DNA of 24,734 nucleotides from Candidatus Dojkabacteria bacterium (GCA_003694175.1 RFKV01000056.1:1-24734), one strand, 5' to 3'. Shown: positions 2,427 to 21,252, numbered from the stretch's first letter. The notes: generated by a model from the letters alone, not told the origin. Translations and numbers: made by a program.

Positions 2427-3638
2427 ATGTATAAGATCCCATCAAACATTGAAAAAAAAGGTTTTTGGAACGTGGATGGCCTGGAGAACAAAAACGTTTT
2501 CCTTAGAAGCTGTTTAAACGTTTCTGTAGACAAGTACGGTAATTTATTAGATGAGTCAAGGCTTAAAGAGTCTATTCAATCAATAGTTGAATTAGCCTTT
2601 AAGTCAAAAAGCCTGATTGTCTGCGGACATCTTGGTAGACCAAAATCTTGTGAACAAAATTTAAGTTTTAAAAAAAATGTACTTCCTTGGATAACGGAGA
2701 ATCTAAACTCTAAGGGTTTCAACGTAATCTTTGCTGAAAGTCTATCTGATATACCTCCGAAAGATCAAAGAAATAAATCAAACATATATTTACTTGAAAA
2801 CATCAGGTTTTTTAAGGGTGAGGAATCAAACGATAGAAAGGAGATGATTAAGTTTGCAGAAAGCTTAGCGGAAACCTCGGATATTTTTGTAAACGACGCT
2901 TTTGCAGACTATAGAGTATCCGCCAGCACATACGAAATTGCTAAATTACTGCCAAGCTATATTGGTAGATCATTTATGAAAGAAATCGAGGCGCTATCAA
3001 AGTTTTACGATCCACCAAGGCCGTTTTTGTGCGTCTTGGGAGGGGCAAAGTTGAGTGAGAAGTTAGAATTTTTAACAACACTGGCAGAAATTTCTGACAA
3101 GGTTTTGATTGGTGGGGCCATGGCTTACACCTTGTTGAAAGCTAAAGGAATTAATATTGGTAAATCATTATACGAAGAGGATAAAGTATCACTGGCGAGA
3201 GAATTGATTAAAAAGCATAGTCAAAAGATGCTGTTGCCAGTTGATCACGTGATCTCGCTGGAGTTTAGTCATTCTTCTCAAGTGACTGTAACAAAGAGCG
3301 CAGAGGTACCGAACGAATACTTTGCGATTGATATTGGGCCAAAAACATTAGAAAAATATCTTGAAGAAATCTCGAATGCAAAAAGTATCCTTTGGAATGG
3401 ACCAATGGGTGTATACGAATGGCCTCAATCAAGTACCGGTACTAGCCAAATAGGTGAATCAATAGTGAAAAATAAAGAAGCATTTAAGCTCGCTGGAGGT
3501 GGAGATACCATCGCAGCGATTAACATGTTTTCTCTAAGCGGTTTTGACCACATCTCAATGGGTGGTGGGGCCATGCTTGTTTTTTTCTCATGCGACAAAT
3601 TTGATACTATTGATGTAATTGTGAATCAATATAGTTAA
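2427..3638 (+). CDS. pgk: Phosphoglycerate kinase
   Basis: GHLGRP, LLENIRF, NDAF, LGGAKLSEK, IGGAM, DIGP, LWNGPMGVYE, GGGDT and HISMGGGA motifs. Basic-patch Arg/His residues are largely retained. Confidence 0.97.
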   Translation: MYKIPSNIEKKGFWNVDGLENKNVFLRSCLNVSVDKYGNLLDESRLKESIQSIVELAFKSKSLIVCGHLGRPKSCEQNLSFKKNVLPWITENLNSKGFNVIFAESLSDIPPKDQRNKSNIYLLENIRFFKGEESNDRKEMIKFAESLAETSDIFVNDAFADYRVSASTYEIAKLLPSYIGRSFMKEIEALSKFYDPPRPFLCVLGGAKLSEKLEFLTTLAEISDKVLIGGAMAYTLLKAKGINIGKSLYEEDKVSLARELIKKHSQKMLLPVDHVISLEFSHSSQVTVTKSAEVPNEYFAIDIGPKTLEKYLEEISNAKSILWNGPMGVYEWPQSSTGTSQIGESIVKNKEAFKLAGGGDTIAAINMFSLSGFDHISMGGGAMLVFFSCDKFDTIDVIVNQYS

Positions 3639-14944: not shown

Positions 14945-16072
14945 ATGAAGTTTTTAGGAGAAGATAAGATCAAAGACTGTACCGTCTTGGTGAGGACGAA
15001 TTTTGATATGGATCTTGATAATGGTACGGTCGTAGATAATACCCCAATCTTAGCAATCCTGCCTACTTTAGAATTTCTGATAAAAGGAAATAACAGGATA
15101 GTAATTTTATCGAGCCTGGGAGATTTTACTGGTGAGGCTAGAGATGAAAGTAGTCTCTTGCCAGTGAGATTCGAAATAGCTAGACAAATTGGAAAAACTG
15201 TCAAATTTGTTTCAGCAAGTAATCCAGTAAACTCAATAAAGTATATGGTTCCGACAGATGTTTTGCTGATCGAAAATCTTTTTTTTCACAATGAAGAGCT
15301 ACCGACGACGTCAGAAGAGCAAAGATTAAGTTTTTTTAAGCCTTTTTTGGATTTTTGTAATGTCTATATAGATGAAAGTTTTGGTGTAGATGAAAATTTG
15401 TCATCTGTGTCTTGGCTGAAAAAAAAGTTTAAAAACGTGTACTATGGGATTCAATACCAAAAAGAGCTAAAAGTATCTAAATCAATCAGTTCTTACCCAA
15501 GTCCCAAAATTGCAATATTAGGTGGTGAGTTGACAAGTTCTAAATTAAACCTAATGATTAGAAACACAGGTAAGTTCGATAAGTTTTTGCTTGGTGGTTT
15601 CCTTGCAAAAGCAATTATTGACTTCATTGAAAAAGGAAGTACTTTTGGGAGTTTCACTAATGAAATAGCACGTGTAGTAGAAAAAATACAAAACAAGGAA
15701 ATTGATGTTTTGCTACCAATTGATCACATCTGCACAGATACAAGTAACAATTCAGTTGAAGTTCAAACTCAATCTTGTCCAAATGAATATGAACCTAAAG
15801 ATATTGGGCCTAACACCCTAATTTTGTTTAGGGAAGTTATTGAAATGGCTGAAACAATTTTATGGTGCGGTCCTATGGGAGCATATAAAGATGAAAGATT
15901 TAACATTGGTACGGAAGCCATAGGCGAATATATTGCACTTTCTGCTTCAAGAAAGGCTAACAAAATAGCTTGTGGGAAAATTACCTTAGAATCTATATCA
16001 AAATTAAAGATAAAACATAAAAGATTCACACACCTTTCTCTAGCTGAAGACAAGTTCCTAGACCTAATTTGA
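14945..16072 (+). CDS. Phosphoglycerate kinase-family protein, degenerate paralog (probable pseudokinase or neofunctionalised)
   Basis: PGK scaffold is recognisable throughout (VLVRTNFD, LLIENL, AILGG, LLGG, LLPIDH, DIGPNT, LWCGPMG). Substrate-binding and catalytic motifs are substituted. The ORF is intact at 375 aa. Confidence 0.88.
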   Translation: MKFLGEDKIKDCTVLVRTNFDMDLDNGTVVDNTPILAILPTLEFLIKGNNRIVILSSLGDFTGEARDESSLLPVRFEIARQIGKTVKFVSASNPVNSIKYMVPTDVLLIENLFFHNEELPTTSEEQRLSFFKPFLDFCNVYIDESFGVDENLSSVSWLKKKFKNVYYGIQYQKELKVSKSISSYPSPKIAILGGELTSSKLNLMIRNTGKFDKFLLGGFLAKAIIDFIEKGSTFGSFTNEIARVVEKIQNKEIDVLLPIDHICTDTSNNSVEVQTQSCPNEYEPKDIGPNTLILFREVIEMAETILWCGPMGAYKDERFNIGTEAIGEYIALSASRKANKIACGKITLESISKLKIKHKRFTHLSLAEDKFLDLI

Positions 16073-16101: not shown

Positions 16102-17601
16102 TCAAACTGAACCAACAGGCAATACGTCCAAGATGTTGATTCCAATAATTCTCAGGATGACAATGCTAAATATCAAAACTACTAGACCGGTAAAGAGTTG
16201 AATCAAATTCTCCCTAGCTTTTTTTACAGCTTCTTCTTCCCCCTTCATATATTGCAAGCCAGCTATTATTAATAAAACCAACGCTATACCTCCCACTACC
16301 CCAAAAATAATACGTATTACCCCTGTAATAATTCCCAAAGGTGAAGGATCAACACATCCTATTGCCGTCCAGACACCACCTTGTTCTACACATTTTTTAC
16401 ATTGTAAATACCCCTCACTTCCACCTACTCCATTCGGAGAATTGTTTGTTCCAGAATATATACAGGCTTGAGTCAGAGATGCATTATTGGCTACAGAAGA
16501 CAATTTTCTTACAGGTGATTTTGGGCTGGAACCACTCCCACCTCTTCCTCCACCAGTGCCACTTCTAACAGCGTCTGGATCACAAACTATAGCCTGACTA
16601 GTACCCTCTTCTAAACCTATTATTTCCCCTGCAGAATAACATTTCCTACATTCATTATCTTTATTTACGTACAGATCTTCACTTAAAACAACTTTTTTAT
16701 CATCAGTCAAAGTGCATCCCGATTTTTCAGCACAAACAAAACCAGAACCATTGTTGTCGACCTTACTTACTCCGACTTCATTAATTAGGTCTCCGATTGG
16801 AATTCCTTGTACATAAAGAGGCCCATTCTCACCCACCTCTTCACCGTGTGTTATCACATAACCATACGGCTCATCTGTAACTTGGTTTTGCCCAAAGATA
16901 TTTTTATTGACTCGTTCTCTTTCTTCTTTGGGATTACCATTTTTGATTTTAAGTACAAGCTCCTTACTACCATCTTTATTTTTAATATGGTACTCACAAG
17001 CATCATAATATTCATAAATAAGATACTGCGGTCCTGGATCACGACAACAAATTAAAGAAATTTCTGTTCTATCTTGATAATTAGGATTAAAAAGGGTACC
17101 TCCATACCTAACCGTGGCTCTATAGCCCTTTGGACAACAACCCCATGCTGTAATACCATCTTCTGAAGTACCCTTGGATGGTATTAATCCTTGCGGGCAC
17201 ACCCTTACAGCCATTCTATTTCCTATTTTAAAATCAACGCCTAGTACACCAAAGATAGTTATTAACTGTCCAGAAAACTTGCTTGGATCATAACAAATAT
17301 TCATCCAATCATTAGGGTATTTGTTTTTTAAAGCTTCAACAAAATAATCCATCGACATTCCACCATAAAATTCTAGACTTTCTGAAGCCGCAAGATTAAT
17401 GTTTCCGGGAGGGCATTTGCCGTAGTTTGGCGTACAGTTCTTTCCAAAGCCTGCAACTGGTTGCACAATTATCTTTTCTGTTGGTTGAGGTCCTGTCTGT
17501 TGAGCCGACAAAATACGTACAAAGCTAATCGTGACTAGTACACAAAAGGAAATAACCAATACGAAATAAAGTTTTATGTTAACTTTGTATCGCAGTTTCA
17601 T
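16102..17601 (-). CDS. Large Cys-rich secreted protein with C-terminal TrbC/VirB2-type (T4SS_pilin-like) domain
   Basis: N-terminal signal/TM. The C-terminal ~99 aa read GVWTAIGC..., a TM, AGLQYM..EE.VKKARE.L, a second TM, LRIIGINIL, which is the CPR pilin pattern. 19 Cys in total. Confidence 0.82.
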   Translation of the reverse strand: MKLRYKVNIKLYFVLVISFCVLVTISFVRILSAQQTGPQPTEKIIVQPVAGFGKNCTPNYGKCPPGNINLAASESLEFYGGMSMDYFVEALKNKYPNDWMNICYDPSKFSGQLITIFGVLGVDFKIGNRMAVRVCPQGLIPSKGTSEDGITAWGCCPKGYRATVRYGGTLFNPNYQDRTEISLICCRDPGPQYLIYEYYDACEYHIKNKDGSKELVLKIKNGNPKEERERVNKNIFGQNQVTDEPYGYVITHGEEVGENGPLYVQGIPIGDLINEVGVSKVDNNGSGFVCAEKSGCTLTDDKKVVLSEDLYVNKDNECRKCYSAGEIIGLEEGTSQAIVCDPDAVRSGTGGGRGGSGSSPKSPVRKLSSVANNASLTQACIYSGTNNSPNGVGGSEGYLQCKKCVEQGGVWTAIGCVDPSPLGIITGVIRIIFGVVGGIALVLLIIAGLQYMKGEEEAVKKARENLIQLFTGLVVLIFSIVILRIIGINILDVLPVGSV

Positions 17602-18785
17602 ATACTTACTAAAGCTGTAAATGTTAATATATCAGTGTATACACCTTGAGGGACTGACGATGATGATTTGGCTGATACTTCTAAAGCCACTCTGTTTGAT
17701 AAACCTGTTCTTGCCGATACATTAGAGCGAAAGATTTCAGCAGGAGGTGATAGAGCTCCAGGAACCATTCCTACATAACCGGGAGTTAATGAATTGAAAG
17801 GGGGAGTAGGTACAAAGCTACCAAACTCAGCAACACCCAAACTACTTATCCTAAGGCCATAACCACTTGGAACACTGACTGAATTTAGATTTCCATTTAC
17901 AGACTCAATGTAATTACTTCCTGCAACTAAACCTCCCGTTAAGTTGGATCGACTACTACGAACAAATACTTTTAAACCATTTGGTAAATTTGTGCCCACA
18001 TCTACACAAATAAAGTTAACATTTGGACCGCTTGTTACAACCATTCCAGGATAAAGAAATCCTAAGTCAACTGACGAAACTGAAACTTCTGTGCCGTTTG
18101 CACACCCACCACTAACTGTATCTAAATCAAGAATAATTGTACCCAAAATATTTGCAGATATACCAATTTGATCTCCGTCTGGAGTTGACGGATCATTTAA
18201 AATAACTACGGAAGCACGACCGGTATCAATACCTGATGCTGAACTCAAGTTTACAACAAAAGACTGGTCTACTGAAACGCTCGGAGTAATGATCTGGTTA
18301 TTAACTCCATTATCTAAAAATACTATTCTTACACACCTACCTGCAATTATACTGTCAGTTCCTGAAGTAAAGGATAAGGTTAGTCCAGACACCCCAAATC
18401 CCCAGGTTAAACCAGATGGTGCAGCACCAACGCTCTTGGAAGTGTAAGTCGCTGTATCACAATTGCCTGTGTTACCTTGCTCTAAAGTAACATCTGCGAA
18501 ATCAAAACCACTGCCTATAACAAAACCGGCAGGTAACATAATGTCAATACTCTGCCCTGAAGAAACCCCAGATGTAGCTACAAACCTAATGGATATAACC
18601 GATGGAGTACTCTCATTAATTCTGCTTAGATTTATGGATATAGACGAGAGCCTATCAGCATTTGATACATTTACTTTCGACAGGCAAAAGGAAAGGACGA
18701 CAAAACCAAATATGACAGTCAAAAAAATTCCTCTAAACAAGCTTAGACTAAGAGTCATTCTAAAAACACAAAGAATAATTTTCAA
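17598..18785 (-). CDS. Secreted beta-rich surface protein with WxL-like C-terminal domain
   Basis: Signal peptide, Ser/Thr/Gly/Val-rich beta content, TNLPNGLKVFV and terminal GVYTDILTFTA resembling the two WxL motifs. Alternative ATG start at 18758. The stop overlaps the pilin ATG (ATGA). Confidence 0.62.
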   Translation of the reverse strand: MKIILCVFRMTLSLSLFRGIFLTVIFGFVVLSFCLSKVNVSNADRLSSISINLSRINESTPSVISIRFVATSGVSSGQSIDIMLPAGFVIGSGFDFADVTLEQGNTGNCDTATYTSKSVGAAPSGLTWGFGVSGLTLSFTSGTDSIIAGRCVRIVFLDNGVNNQIITPSVSVDQSFVVNLSSASGIDTGRASVVILNDPSTPDGDQIGISANILGTIILDLDTVSGGCANGTEVSVSSVDLGFLYPGMVVTSGPNVNFICVDVGTNLPNGLKVFVRSSRSNLTGGLVAGSNYIESVNGNLNSVSVPSGYGLRISSLGVAEFGSFVPTPPFNSLTPGYVGMVPGALSPPAEIFRSNVSARTGLSNRVALEVSAKSSSSVPQGVYTDILTFTALVSI

Positions 18786-18823
18786 AAACTTTATCTTTAA
18801 TACGTAGGTTATTGTTTTCCTTT

Positions 18824-20041
18824 CTACTTGTTGTCTTCTCTATTTTTCTTCTGCTTATACCCACGCACAAGTTTATAATACACCAGCCCAAAAATTAGAA
18901 CAACAGTAAAGGCCAAATGAACTGGAAAAACAAAAAAACTAGTTGAAGTTTTAATAGGTGGCTGATTACCAACAAACAAGTTTAACTCGGCACTAAAAAA
19001 ACCAATCCTAAAATATCTAGCTTGATAAACTAAGTTTTCGAAGAAAGCGTTAATATTGTAGACGATAGCATAAAAAAAGTTCATAACTTTTTGATCAGCA
19101 TCCAAAAATTTAGGGACAGAGAAAAATAAAAATTTTTGATTTTGATCACCTAAACTGTCATACACATAAGGATAAGTAGAGACTACATCAGACTTAAGCT
19201 TGAGTAATTTACTCTGATCTTGCTTTAACTCTTCAGCATTTAAGTCTCTGTCAAAACCCTCTTCTGTAAACATTGAAAAATACTGTCTTGTTTTTTGAGG
19301 AAATAGTCTACTTCCTTCTGGATTGAACAATGTTCCGTCTTCTCGAATTTTTACCCCGTTTGAATAAATATATATAAATCCTTTGGGTACTACAAACACA
19401 TTACCGTTATTTTTTATACTAGTTTCAAACGTTACTGGCATTGATGTAAAAAAGAACTGATTGTTTTTAGTGCTAAAACTAAGCAATCTTGAGTCATAAA
19501 CTATTTCACCACCCAGATTAATAAAGATCAAATAAACTAATTCTTCACCTAAGGCTACCTGATTTTTTTTATTGTCTTGTGAATGAGAAATGGGATTAGT
19601 GCTTACCAAAATCCCAGCATAGTGCGCCCCGGGAGATGCACTTTGGGGTATGTCTACTAGATACTTAACCTCTACTACGTTACATCCATTACAATCACCA
19701 GAATTTAACGGCTTCCTGATTGACTCATTACCCAGTTTTATCCATTTGTCTAAAGTGTCAATTTCATAACTTACCTGATTTGAAACAATTGGAGCACCTG
19801 TAAAATCTTCAATCTCCAACCTCTTCACACCAAGATAGAGTACCTCAGGATCTTCATCATTAAATATGACATTAAATTTACCCTCATACTTATCCCCAGG
19901 CCTCAAAATTAGCCCAACTGAATTTCTGCTAGTGTTTGATAAGTCTAAGAGTGGTGGAGAAAGTATAACCGCACTAGTTAAGTTGGTAAGTGATATACTG
20001 AAGAAAAAAAACGCCAAAAGGCACGTTTTAAAAAATTTCAT
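18824..20041 (-). CDS. DUF916/DUF3324 (WxLIP/CscA-like) cell-surface protein with C-terminal TM anchor
   Basis: Signal peptide, LSPPLLDL, LRPGDKY, IP.SASPGAHYAGIL, IKNNGNV...PKG.I, then a C-terminal TM and basic tail (KKKNR). Confidence 0.75.
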   Translation of the reverse strand: MKFFKTCLLAFFFFSISLTNLTSAVILSPPLLDLSNTSRNSVGLILRPGDKYEGKFNVIFNDEDPEVLYLGVKRLEIEDFTGAPIVSNQVSYEIDTLDKWIKLGNESIRKPLNSGDCNGCNVVEVKYLVDIPQSASPGAHYAGILVSTNPISHSQDNKKNQVALGEELVYLIFINLGGEIVYDSRLLSFSTKNNQFFFTSMPVTFETSIKNNGNVFVVPKGFIYIYSNGVKIREDGTLFNPEGSRLFPQKTRQYFSMFTEEGFDRDLNAEELKQDQSKLLKLKSDVVSTYPYVYDSLGDQNQKFLFFSVPKFLDADQKVMNFFYAIVYNINAFFENLVYQARYFRIGFFSAELNLFVGNQPPIKTSTSFFVFPVHLAFTVVLIFGLVYYKLVRGYKQKKNREDNK

Positions 20042-20160
20042 AGAGCAAATACGTACGACTTAAAAATTTAATCAAACCGACAAAAACGTATAAGCAAACA
20101 AACTTCGACTATAATAGCACAAAATTGTATTTAAATTAATTTCTTTAGTAAGTTTATGAT

Positions 20161-21252
20161 ATGAATAGAAAAAAAAAGGTTTTTCTAGCACTTTCAGGTG
20201 GTGTTGACTCGGCTGTTTCTGCAGTACTTCTCAAGCAAGAGGGATATGAAGTAGTTGGAGTATTCATGAAAAATTGGTCTGGAGATGATTATGGTATACA
20301 GAAAGATTGTCCCTGGGAAAAAGATCAAAGGGATGCTGAGGAAGTTTGTAAAACCATTGGAATAGGATTCATGTCTGTAAATTTTGAAAAAGAGTATAGG
20401 GAAAAAGTTATAAGTTACTTTTTTGAGGAGTATCGTAAAGGAAGAACTCCAAATCCTGACGTGATGTGTAATAAAGAAATAAAATTCAAACTTTTTTTCA
20501 AAAAATCGTTAGAGCTTGGTTTTGATTACATAGCAACAGGACACTATGCAAGGAAAAAGTTCGAAGTTACCGAACACAAACTATTAAAAGGTCTTGATAA
20601 AAACAAAGATCAGTCGTATTTCTTGTATAACATAAATCAAGAAATTTTGTCTAGAACTCTCTTTCCAATTGGTGAACTACAAAAAACCGAAGTCAGAACA
20701 CTAGCACAAAAATTTAATCTTCCTAACGCATATAAGCCAGACAGTCAGGGTATATGCTTTATCGGAGAAATAAACGTTTTGAAGTTCTTAATGTCGAAAC
20801 TCCCAATCAAACCTGGAGACATTGTTGATATAGACACAATGAAAAAAGTTGGAGAGCATAAAGGCTCATATTTTTATACAATAGGACAAAGAGAGGGTCT
20901 TGGCATTGGTGGCCAGAAAGTGCCATACTTCGTTGTAGCTAAAGATCAGGAAAAAAACATAATCTATGTTGGACATGGGCAAAATCATCCTGCACTAATG
21001 AAAACTATCGTAAAATTGGAATCAATTCACTTTGTATCGGAAAAATATAAAAAATTTTTTGAAAACAATGGATTTCTTAAATGCGAGGCCAGCACACGAT
21101 ATAGACAGTTACCATCTCCTGGAACATTACTCACAGAAAACCATCAGATACTCTTCAAATTCGAGACACCACAAAGAGCAACTGCCCCTGGACAGAGCCT
21201 GGTGATCTATCTTTCCGATGAATGCTTAGGAGGGGGGATAATAAAAGAGTAA
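20161..21252 (+). CDS. mnmA: tRNA-specific 2-thiouridylase MnmA
   Basis: ALSGGVDS, GRTPNPDVMCN, IATGHYA, KDQSYFL, DSQGICFIG, YTIGQR.GL, APGQS. Confidence 0.98.
   Translation: MNRKKKVFLALSGGVDSAVSAVLLKQEGYEVVGVFMKNWSGDDYGIQKDCPWEKDQRDAEEVCKTIGIGFMSVNFEKEYREKVISYFFEEYRKGRTPNPDVMCNKEIKFKLFFKKSLELGFDYIATGHYARKKFEVTEHKLLKGLDKNKDQSYFLYNINQEILSRTLFPIGELQKTEVRTLAQKFNLPNAYKPDSQGICFIGEINVLKFLMSKLPIKPGDIVDIDTMKKVGEHKGSYFYTIGQREGLGIGGQKVPYFVVAKDQEKNIIYVGHGQNHPALMKTIVKLESIHFVSEKYKKFFENNGFLKCEASTRYRQLPSPGTLLTENHQILFKFETPQRATAPGQSLVIYLSDECLGGGIIKE

Follow-up and report, generated by a model that had tools for sequence, protein, structure and literature searches.

Ultra-small bacteria of the Candidate Phyla Radiation (CPR) live attached to other microbes, and the way in which their attachment surface is built is largely obscure. 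Here, we describe three genes for exported proteins, termed A, B and C, on a 24,734-nucleotide stretch of DNA from Candidatus Dojkabacteria bacterium (GCA_003694175.1, RFKV01000056.1:1-24734), the whole of which is referred to below as the window. We argue that A and B probably constitute a minimal chaperone-subunit module of the type known from the Pam pili of CPR bacteria and the Elr/WxL pili of Bacillota, with C as a separate element that has come to lie behind them.

Organization of the locus

The three open reading frames (ORFs) are co-oriented on the minus strand, with A first and C last in the direction of transcription:

18824..20041, minus strand: gene A, 405 aa, ATG start (ORF listing)
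18786..18823, minus strand: 38-bp spacer between A and B, with a AAAGGAAAA purine run (sequence)
17598..18785, minus strand: gene B, 395 aa from a TTG start (ORF listing)
17598..17601, minus strand: ATGA, the overlap of the B stop and the C start (sequence)
16102..17601, minus strand: gene C, 499 aa, ATG start (ORF listing)

The first-pass annotation of this DNA had described three tightly packed genes for secreted proteins, with 38 bp between the first two and an ATGA overlap between the last two; the ORF coordinates, which agree with it exactly, and the sequence itself confirm this arrangement. A hydrophobic, signal-like N-terminal segment is found on A, B and C alike. For B, an in-frame ATG lies 27 nt past the TTG and gives a protein of 386 aa, and the ESM Atlas record begins at that ATG.

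Protein A, a divergent WxLIP-type protein and probable chaperone

Protein A consists of a signal peptide, two immunoglobulin (Ig)-like domains, a helical insert and two closing strands, and it ends in a membrane helix with a basic tail behind it. Its AlphaFold2 (AF2) model (predicted local distance difference test, pLDDT, 82) places strands at residues 26-147 and at 168-258 plus 347-371, followed by a helix at 374-404, and thus shows the WxLIP-type layout of two tandem Ig-like domains and then a C-terminal transmembrane (TM) helix. Three features of A are used below:

19514..19558, minus strand: residues 162-176 (VALGEELVYLIFINL), a G1-like strand ending domain 1 and the predicted donor strand for B (complex model and WxLIP alignment)
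19018-19264, minus strand: residues 260-342, a helical insert of about 85 residues, placed after the strands of the second Ig domain and ahead of the last two strands (AF2 model)
18854..18922, minus strand: residues 374-396, the C-terminal TM anchor, followed by the tail KLVRGYKQKKNREDNK (model helix 374-404 and sequence)

The helical insert is missing from most members of the A family, which are 300-350 aa long, and is lineage-specific.

Word-indexed homology searches returned only 2-6 relatives per protein, and deeper alignments were therefore built from genome searches, which for A gathered 29 relatives. When the resulting A-family profile was compared with Protein Data Bank (PDB) chains, it matched EfmWxLIP1 of Enterococcus faecium (9i25_C/9i1y_A) with E = 1.9e-9 and 40 bits, the runner-up having an E-value of 0.67; profile positions 41-217 align with residues 23-225 of the chain, and strand 162-176 of A aligns with the AQIKNRIAYNLAVVL region of the solved WxLIP. 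A Foldseek search with the A model likewise placed WxLIP (9i1y/9i25_C) first, at 8e-9, followed by CfaA, CsuC, FimC and DraB, and also RbmA. Furthermore, other members of the A family exceed the cut-off of PF06030 (DUF916) inside the coordinates of their A-profile matches. For example, in genome G066, which belongs to the window's own family, the PF06030 match at C1:1055245-1055541 lies within the A-profile match at 1055134-1056030. Because of the profile E-value, the fold matches and the PF06030 matches within its family, we conclude that A is a divergent member of the DUF916/WxLIP family, or a membrane-anchored chaperone of the PamC/D type. The first-pass reading of the first gene as a DUF916/WxLIP-type anchored protein thus stands, on both profile E-value and fold match.

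Three published systems give this assignment its meaning. In the Csc clusters of Lactiplantibacillus plantarum, CscA carries DUF916, CscB and CscC are WxL proteins and CscD is an LPxTG protein (Siezen et al. 2006, PMC1534035), and the initial reading of the DUF916 protein was that of a WxL-binding anchor (Hassan et al. 2023, PMC10599100). In the Elr system of Enterococcus faecalis, the DUF916/DUF3324 protein ElrE is a membrane-bound chaperone that primes the WxL pilins ElrC and ElrD for donor-strand exchange, with ElrA as the tip and ElrB as the LPxTG base (Sleutel et al., 10.64898/2026.10.17.759780). Finally, the Pam pili of the CPR bacterium Ca. Mycosynbacter amalyticus comprise the pilins PamA, PamB and PamE, the chaperones PamC and PamD, the anchor PamR and the tip PamT (Troman et al., 10.64898/2026.03.03.709456, PMC13278184); the two-domain pilins donate a linker strand, the chaperones resemble PapD and carry a membrane helix at the C-terminus, and the terminator is an RbmA-like membrane protein. 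The Pam paper makes no mention of WxL or DUF916.

Protein B, a predicted two-domain secreted subunit

The AF2 model of B (pLDDT 85) consists of an N-terminal sandwich, a low-confidence linker and a C-terminal sandwich:

18192..18656, minus strand: residues 44-198, N-terminal Ig-like beta-sandwich, BslA/YweA-like, with Cys109 and Cys151 (model and structure match)
18147..18191, minus strand: residues 199-213, inter-domain linker, a candidate donated strand as in Pam pilins (low-confidence model)
17601..18146, minus strand: residues 214-395, C-terminal pilin-like beta-sandwich ending GVYTDILTFTALVSI, with Cys228 and Cys260 (model and profile)

Mature B thus has four cysteines, two per domain. 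The N-terminal domain contains ten strands within residues 47-195 of the model; its best VIA-align matches are YweA (Z 10.4) and BslA (Z 10.2), and three members of the B family match Pfam BslA at 2.3e-5. The linker, with pLDDT below 50 at residues 201-213, runs into an amphipathic strand, QIGISANIL, that is conserved in the alignment of the C-terminal domain.

For the C-terminal domain, which spans residues 217-393 in the model, the best matches among solved structures are TLP-1b, a pond fibril (Z 8.2; for TLP-1, see PMC11494351), and CfaE, through its pilin domain (Z 7.6); both Z values are middling. Among ESM Atlas structural neighbors of B are Saccharimonadota proteins (template modeling score, TM, about 0.8), leucine-rich repeat/DUF285 proteins that end in a B-type domain, and Spore-Coat-U (SCPU) pilins. 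Judged by model, the domain therefore appears to resemble donor-strand subunits (TLP-1b, the CfaE pilin domain and SCPU). A profile of the domain found 1985 cluster representatives among 1.84 billion, and in these proteins, 164-1781 aa long, it is invariably C-terminal and preceded by N-terminal parts that vary. Orthologs of B occur in 7 genomes at 39-57% identity.

The second gene had been taken in the first-pass annotation for a WxL protein, a claim that did not hold. Searched alone, B matches no Pfam or NCBIfam model. PF13731 (WxL) has no match in B, in 35 relatives, in 102 representatives or in a six-frame search of the organism's own genome; hhalign of the C-terminal-domain alignment against 20 CPR PF13731 proteins returned a probability of 2.9%; and profiles of the B alignments had no match among PDB chains. 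Moreover, residues 214-395 contain no tryptophan, the Trp-x-Leu positions reading NGLKV and LTFTA, and the WxL chain of 9i25 is not among the 50 matches listed in a structure search with B. Softer signals point toward WxL: 79 of 100 named ESM Atlas feature matches to B are PF13731-carrying clusters, a lead and not proof, and WxL-domain proteins appear at ranks 12 and 22 of an AlphaFold database (AFDB) cluster search. Whole-chain Foldseek of B was uninformative, returning mostly two-domain adhesins and integrins with TM below 0.25. Membership in the WxL family is rejected on the basis of Pfam, the PDB profile search and hhalign, and B is instead a functional counterpart of WxL, occupying the same place on softer evidence. 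Its modeled architecture seems a better fit to the two-domain Pam pilins than to WxL.

Small B-type proteins of 200-240 aa in other Patescibacteria (L062-L070) carry three N-terminal copies of an S-T-N-Y-x-L strand before the shared C-terminal domain, and the same motif opens B-type proteins of 410-433 aa in the class. These strands may be donor strands.

Predicted A-B complex and proposed mechanism

Complex prediction was performed with residues 24-373 of A and 40-395 of B, in three runs and with three controls, on custom alignments. The interaction score ipSAE reached 0.69 in the three A+B runs and 0.00 in all three controls; in the calibration, which is only rough for custom alignments, 58 of the 80 solved complexes and 2 of the 110 mismatched pairs scored as high as 0.69. 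On A, the predicted interface comprises the N-terminal strand 24-31 together with residues 157-169, 171 and 173, and strand 157-173 aligns with the strand-donating region of WxLIP/ElrE. On B, it comprises residues 214-221, 233-244, 259-274, 344-356 and 382-395, that is, the C-terminal domain including its C-terminal strand. In the model, A is thus predicted to clamp the C-terminal domain of B in the manner of pilus chaperones, with a contact geometry that appears to be the one reported for ElrE-ElrD and predicted for PamC/D with pilins. The prediction supports A-B binding without demonstrating it, and the earlier proposal that A binds the second protein is upheld at the level of prediction.

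Under the mechanism that we propose, A and B would be exported by Sec, and the C-terminal helix would keep A in the membrane. Strands 24-31 and ~162-176 of its N-terminal Ig domain could then supply the strands lacking from a presumably open beta-sandwich in the C-terminal domain of B, a donor-strand complementation through which A would fold B and hold it at the cell surface, with the BslA-like Ig domain of B facing outward. B may either stay tethered on A or be passed into a short, thin fiber, in which, as in PamA/PamB, each B would insert its linker strand into the groove of its neighbor while A held the base.

Distribution of A and B in Patescibacteria

In a phylum-wide sample of 401 Patescibacteria genomes (one of which, G368, is unpublished and supports no claim made here), the A family is present in 209 and the B domain in 116. 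Both types lie within 10 kb on one contig in at least 60 genomes among the matches listed, most commonly with B directly upstream of A on the same strand. Within the class, B is matched in 26 of 221 genomes, and the loci fetched are arrays of A-type and B-type paralogs. The organism's own genome encodes two more A-type and two more B-type proteins, all of whose genes are solitary on other contigs. A third B-type domain lies on contig C19 (L037:6040-7334), within a 172-aa ORF; the end of a 262-aa ORF, read in a different frame, is overlapped by it, and the pair may be a frameshifted or split B-type gene. Large membrane proteins near the A/B clusters of other genomes were considered as giant pilins and rejected, as they carry Big_5, CarboxypepD_reg or DUF2207 domains.

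The Elr/WxL system has been stated to be confined to Bacillota (10.64898/2026.10.17.759780), yet PF06030 exceeds its cut-off in 92 and PF13731 in 10 of the 401 genomes; therefore, the statement fails once metagenome-derived genomes are counted. In these 10 genomes, the Pfam WxL genes often adjoin PF06030 genes. Such pairs of Pfam WxL and DUF916 genes are found at G239:C8:18270-19108, G531:C1:43281-44308 (L047), G353:C27:3328-4145 and G290:C14:8495-9328, and the G531 locus comprises a B-type gene, an A-type gene, a small Pfam-WxL gene, a second A-type gene and a gene for a 1177-aa protein with a WxL-like end.

Protein C and its placement across the order

Protein C is built from a signal peptide, a cysteine-rich head of ~310-390 residues, a Gly/Ser-rich linker and a two-helix hairpin resembling T4SS_pilin, the Pfam family named for the type IV secretion system (T4SS). 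The hydrophobic segments of the hairpin start near residues 422 and 469, and the mature protein has 18 cysteines, at positions 56-416. The Pfam match is as follows:

16147..16332, minus strand: residues 424-485, PF18895 (T4SS_pilin) (hmmscan and six-frame search)

It scores 25.7 bits in a whole-protein hmmscan (cut-off 26.6) and 30.5 bits in the six-frame genome search, with homologs of C scoring 20-23 bits, and 69 of 100 ESM Atlas feature matches to C are PF18895 clusters, with 202 shared features. The ESM Atlas model of C (pLDDT 0.42) is too poor to give the fold of the head, and no donor-strand-like motif common to the mature N-termini of C homologs was seen. The description of the third protein as a large head on a T4SS_pilin-like C-terminal hairpin is borne out by the PF18895 scores and Atlas features, as is that of the head as disulfide-rich by the 18 cysteines. 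With the VirB2-like/T4SS_pilin proteins of CPR bacteria (10.1101/2025.01.22.634366), C shares Sec export and a C-terminal two-helix hairpin after a CxxC...GC motif. It differs from them in its 499 aa with an 18-cysteine head, compared with a typical ~100-200 aa for PF18895 proteins, and in lying outside pilin arrays and not near virB4.

Homologs of C occur in 32 of 32 genomes of the order, most at 43-62% identity over the last ~100 residues, and C is thus a core gene of the order; its product is a surface protein rich in cysteines, with a VirB2/T4SS_pilin-like hairpin as anchor. Its usual site is between the gene of a 400-aa membrane protein (fam2), which it often overlaps by 4 nt, and a DNA ligase gene (G045, G054, G066, G070 and L009); a solute-binding protein and the DNA ligase are its usual neighbors. 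A 397-aa protein encoded upstream of C in L009 was examined as a hidden relative of A or B and rejected, its hidden Markov model (HMM) scores lying below zero. In the organism's own genome, the fam2-ligase site is intact on contig C108 (3727-6734; L078), the two genes overlap by 4 nt and C is absent there, which points to a move of C, in this sub-lineage, out of its ancestral place between fam2 and the ligase gene and into the A/B locus, where it would be co-translated with B.

The order A-B-C recurs in L001 (a Joint Genome Institute metagenome), G049, G062 and G063, with protein identities of 33-57% and a B/C junction that is either a 1- to 4-nt overlap or an 8-bp gap; the arrangement is therefore not due to chance. 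The ATGA overlap of 4 nt is also found in L001 and L017, and L018 has a 1-nt overlap. In other orders, C lies next to A/B genes as A-C in G064 and as B-A-C in G067. The gene-neighborhood survey thus recovered in related genomes the linkage of A/B with a pilin-like gene that the first-pass annotation had proposed. The linkage is real but lineage-restricted: C lies behind A/B genes in only about four genera and elsewhere in the order is usually at another locus, and behind the close B orthologs of G045, G047, G048 and G073 stand A-type genes instead of C. The link of C to the A/B pair is probably the product of recent gene shuffling, and a functional tie remains a possibility in view of its recurrence in three gene orders.

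Elsewhere in the genome, six genes for small two-helix proteins lie beside groES/groEL at C101:300-4107 (L040); four of them match PF18895, and no T4SS ATPase is encoded nearby. Together with a VirB4-like gene, this six-gene pilin-like array fits the CPR T4SS survey (10.1101/2025.01.22.634366).

Genomic setting

The genome is a metagenome-assembled genome (MAG) from a hot spring, 745 kb in size and 82% complete, and its homologs bear Dojkabacteria names. The sequence was found in no RNA run, and its only full match is a hot-springs metagenome. The locus consists of A, B and C only and is flanked by housekeeping genes, with mnmA at 20161-21252 on one side and a phosphoglycerate kinase paralog at 14945-16072 on the other; the rest of the 24.7-kb window carries glycolysis genes, a seryl-tRNA synthetase, a signal peptidase and similar genes. 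A and mnmA diverge from an intergenic region with a promoter-like element:

20042..20160, minus strand: divergent A/mnmA intergenic region, with a promoter-like hexamer pair at 20135-20108 (consensus match only)

In a promoter and terminator scan of this region, the number of sites was not above that in shuffled sequences. The paralog at 14945-16072, directly downstream of the operon, is a second phosphoglycerate kinase gene that scores 207 bits on PF00162, compared with 351 bits for the copy at 2427-3638. Two sortase genes (PF04203, 87 and 62 bits) are present in the genome at C64:4035-4457 and C20:7872-8252, and none at the A/B/C locus; sortase-anchored surface proteins are thus possible in this organism.

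Comparison with known surface systems

The A/B pair resembles the Pam system in that its operon encodes a PapD/FimC-like chaperone, anchored C-terminally by a membrane helix, and no usher, in the two-domain layout of B with its linker and paired cysteines (a likeness of model and architecture only), in host phylum, and in subunit mass (~36 kDa for mature B, 38.7 kDa for PamB). It differs in having one chaperone gene and one subunit gene, without equivalents of PamT, PamE or PamR at the locus, in its lineage, a Dojkabacteria-type order that is absent from the paper of Troman et al., and in the coupling of the T4SS_pilin-like gene C to the subunit gene B.

With the Elr system, the pair shares a WxLIP-type protein, of which A is a sequence-detectable relative with two Ig domains and a membrane helix. 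In addition, A is predicted to put its domain-1 strand beside the C-terminal strand of its partner, and the partner domain is C-terminal under variable N-terminal parts and encoded next to the WxLIP-type gene. However, B is not a WxL domain, and the A/B locus has no LPxTG or sortase-linked partner. The likeness to the Csc clusters lies in a DUF916-type anchored protein beside a secreted, anchorless partner, and in paralogous arrays of both in related genomes; the differences are the lack of a WxL motif and of an LPxTG member, a host that is not a Firmicute, and a locus without a sugar-utilization context. The chaperone-pilin mechanism of Pam and Elr is currently the best frame for the locus, better than the static anchor of the Csc model.

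Weighing the explanations

Several observations weigh against a polymerizing A/B module with an independent C. Searched alone, A matches no Pfam model, PF06030 included, at E <= 1 and no NCBIfam model, and a six-frame search of the organism's own genome found no match to PF06030, PF11797 or PF13731 at E <= 1. The A-B interface is a prediction on custom alignments that may partly echo remembered solved chaperone-subunit complexes. As for polymerization of B, the locus encodes a single subunit and neither a tip nor a terminator, the S-T-N-Y-x-L N-terminal strands of the small B-type proteins are missing from B, and the first strand of B is part of the N-terminal domain in the monomer model. Furthermore, the start/stop overlap of B and C is kept in four genomes despite differing flanking genes, and C follows A/B genes in the two further arrangements of G064 and G067, which hints at selection for co-expression of B and C.

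Some of these points suit a static display of the Csc/WxLIP type, in which A would anchor one B and B would serve as a monomeric coat or adhesin through its BslA-like domain. The single A and single B without tip or terminator, the likeness of the B N-terminal domain to BslA/YweA surface-layer proteins, the stability of the predicted complex in all three runs and the model published for WxLIP (Hassan et al. 2023, PMC10599100) all agree with it. Nevertheless, the homologous Firmicute system polymerizes by donor-strand exchange with the DUF916 protein as chaperone (10.64898/2026.10.17.759780), CPR proteins that share the two-domain layout of B assemble into filaments (PMC13278184), and the conserved amphipathic strand after the flexible linker of B suits donation to a neighbor; we consider static display a tentative alternative, somewhat unlikely on balance. 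A chaperone-subunit module of A and B, through which B may polymerize and serve in surface adhesion, accounts better for these features, and C would then act independently of it.

The role of C separates the other two explanations. The first-pass annotation had C replacing the LPxTG partner in a hybrid apparatus, and C might indeed be integral to the A/B machine, either as a base or terminator in place of the LPxTG proteins ElrB/CscD or of PamR, or as a pilin that has its large head mounted through A/B. In favor of this, C lies outside the cytoplasm on a membrane anchor, neither a PamR-like nor an LPxTG gene is found at the locus, the B/C overlap (ATGA or 1-nt) persists in the window, L001, L017 and L018 amid differing surroundings, and C stands directly behind A-type genes in the different gene orders of G064 and G067. 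The proposal is unproven, and it is weakened by the distribution of C, which occurs in every genome of the order, mostly apart from A/B and paired with the unrelated 400-aa membrane protein; moreover, the close B orthologs of G045, G047, G048 and G073 precede A-type genes, the mature N-termini of C homologs share no donor-strand-like motif, and A is able to anchor B alone. We therefore regard a C integral to the A/B machine as improbable, and the recruitment of this VirB2-like protein to the module in this sub-lineage, as a membrane base or a displayed head, as a correspondingly long shot. A service of all three proteins to a VirB4-type system, with C as the pilin and A/B as adhesin parts of a mating or attachment structure, would accord with the borderline PF18895 match of C, with the presence of a VirB4-like gene (AAA_10, contig C94) and of the C101 array of six small pilin-like genes, and with the report that CPR T4SS genes are essential for epibiotic growth (10.1101/2025.01.22.634366). 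Yet the 24.7-kb window has no T4SS gene, half of the Patescibacteria genomes sampled carry A/B modules in separate clusters that contain no pilin genes, and the usual neighbors of C are the solute-binding protein and DNA ligase genes, not VirB4, all of which makes such an accessory module highly improbable.

Significance

If A and B act as proposed, the locus would be a stripped-down, two-gene case of the chaperone-assembled surface systems described in two separate 2026 preprints, on Pam and on Elr/WxL, and its chaperone, A, may tie these two systems together by sequence. DUF916-type chaperones exceed the Pfam cut-off in about a quarter of the sampled Patescibacteria, and true WxL domains occur in a few of them. 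The move of C is in itself a modest addition, and the coupling of C to A/B raises the question of whether components of two surface machineries are joined in CPR bacteria: if true, the recruitment of C would create a hybrid of a donor-strand fiber system and a T4SS-type pilin, a combination undescribed in any organism.

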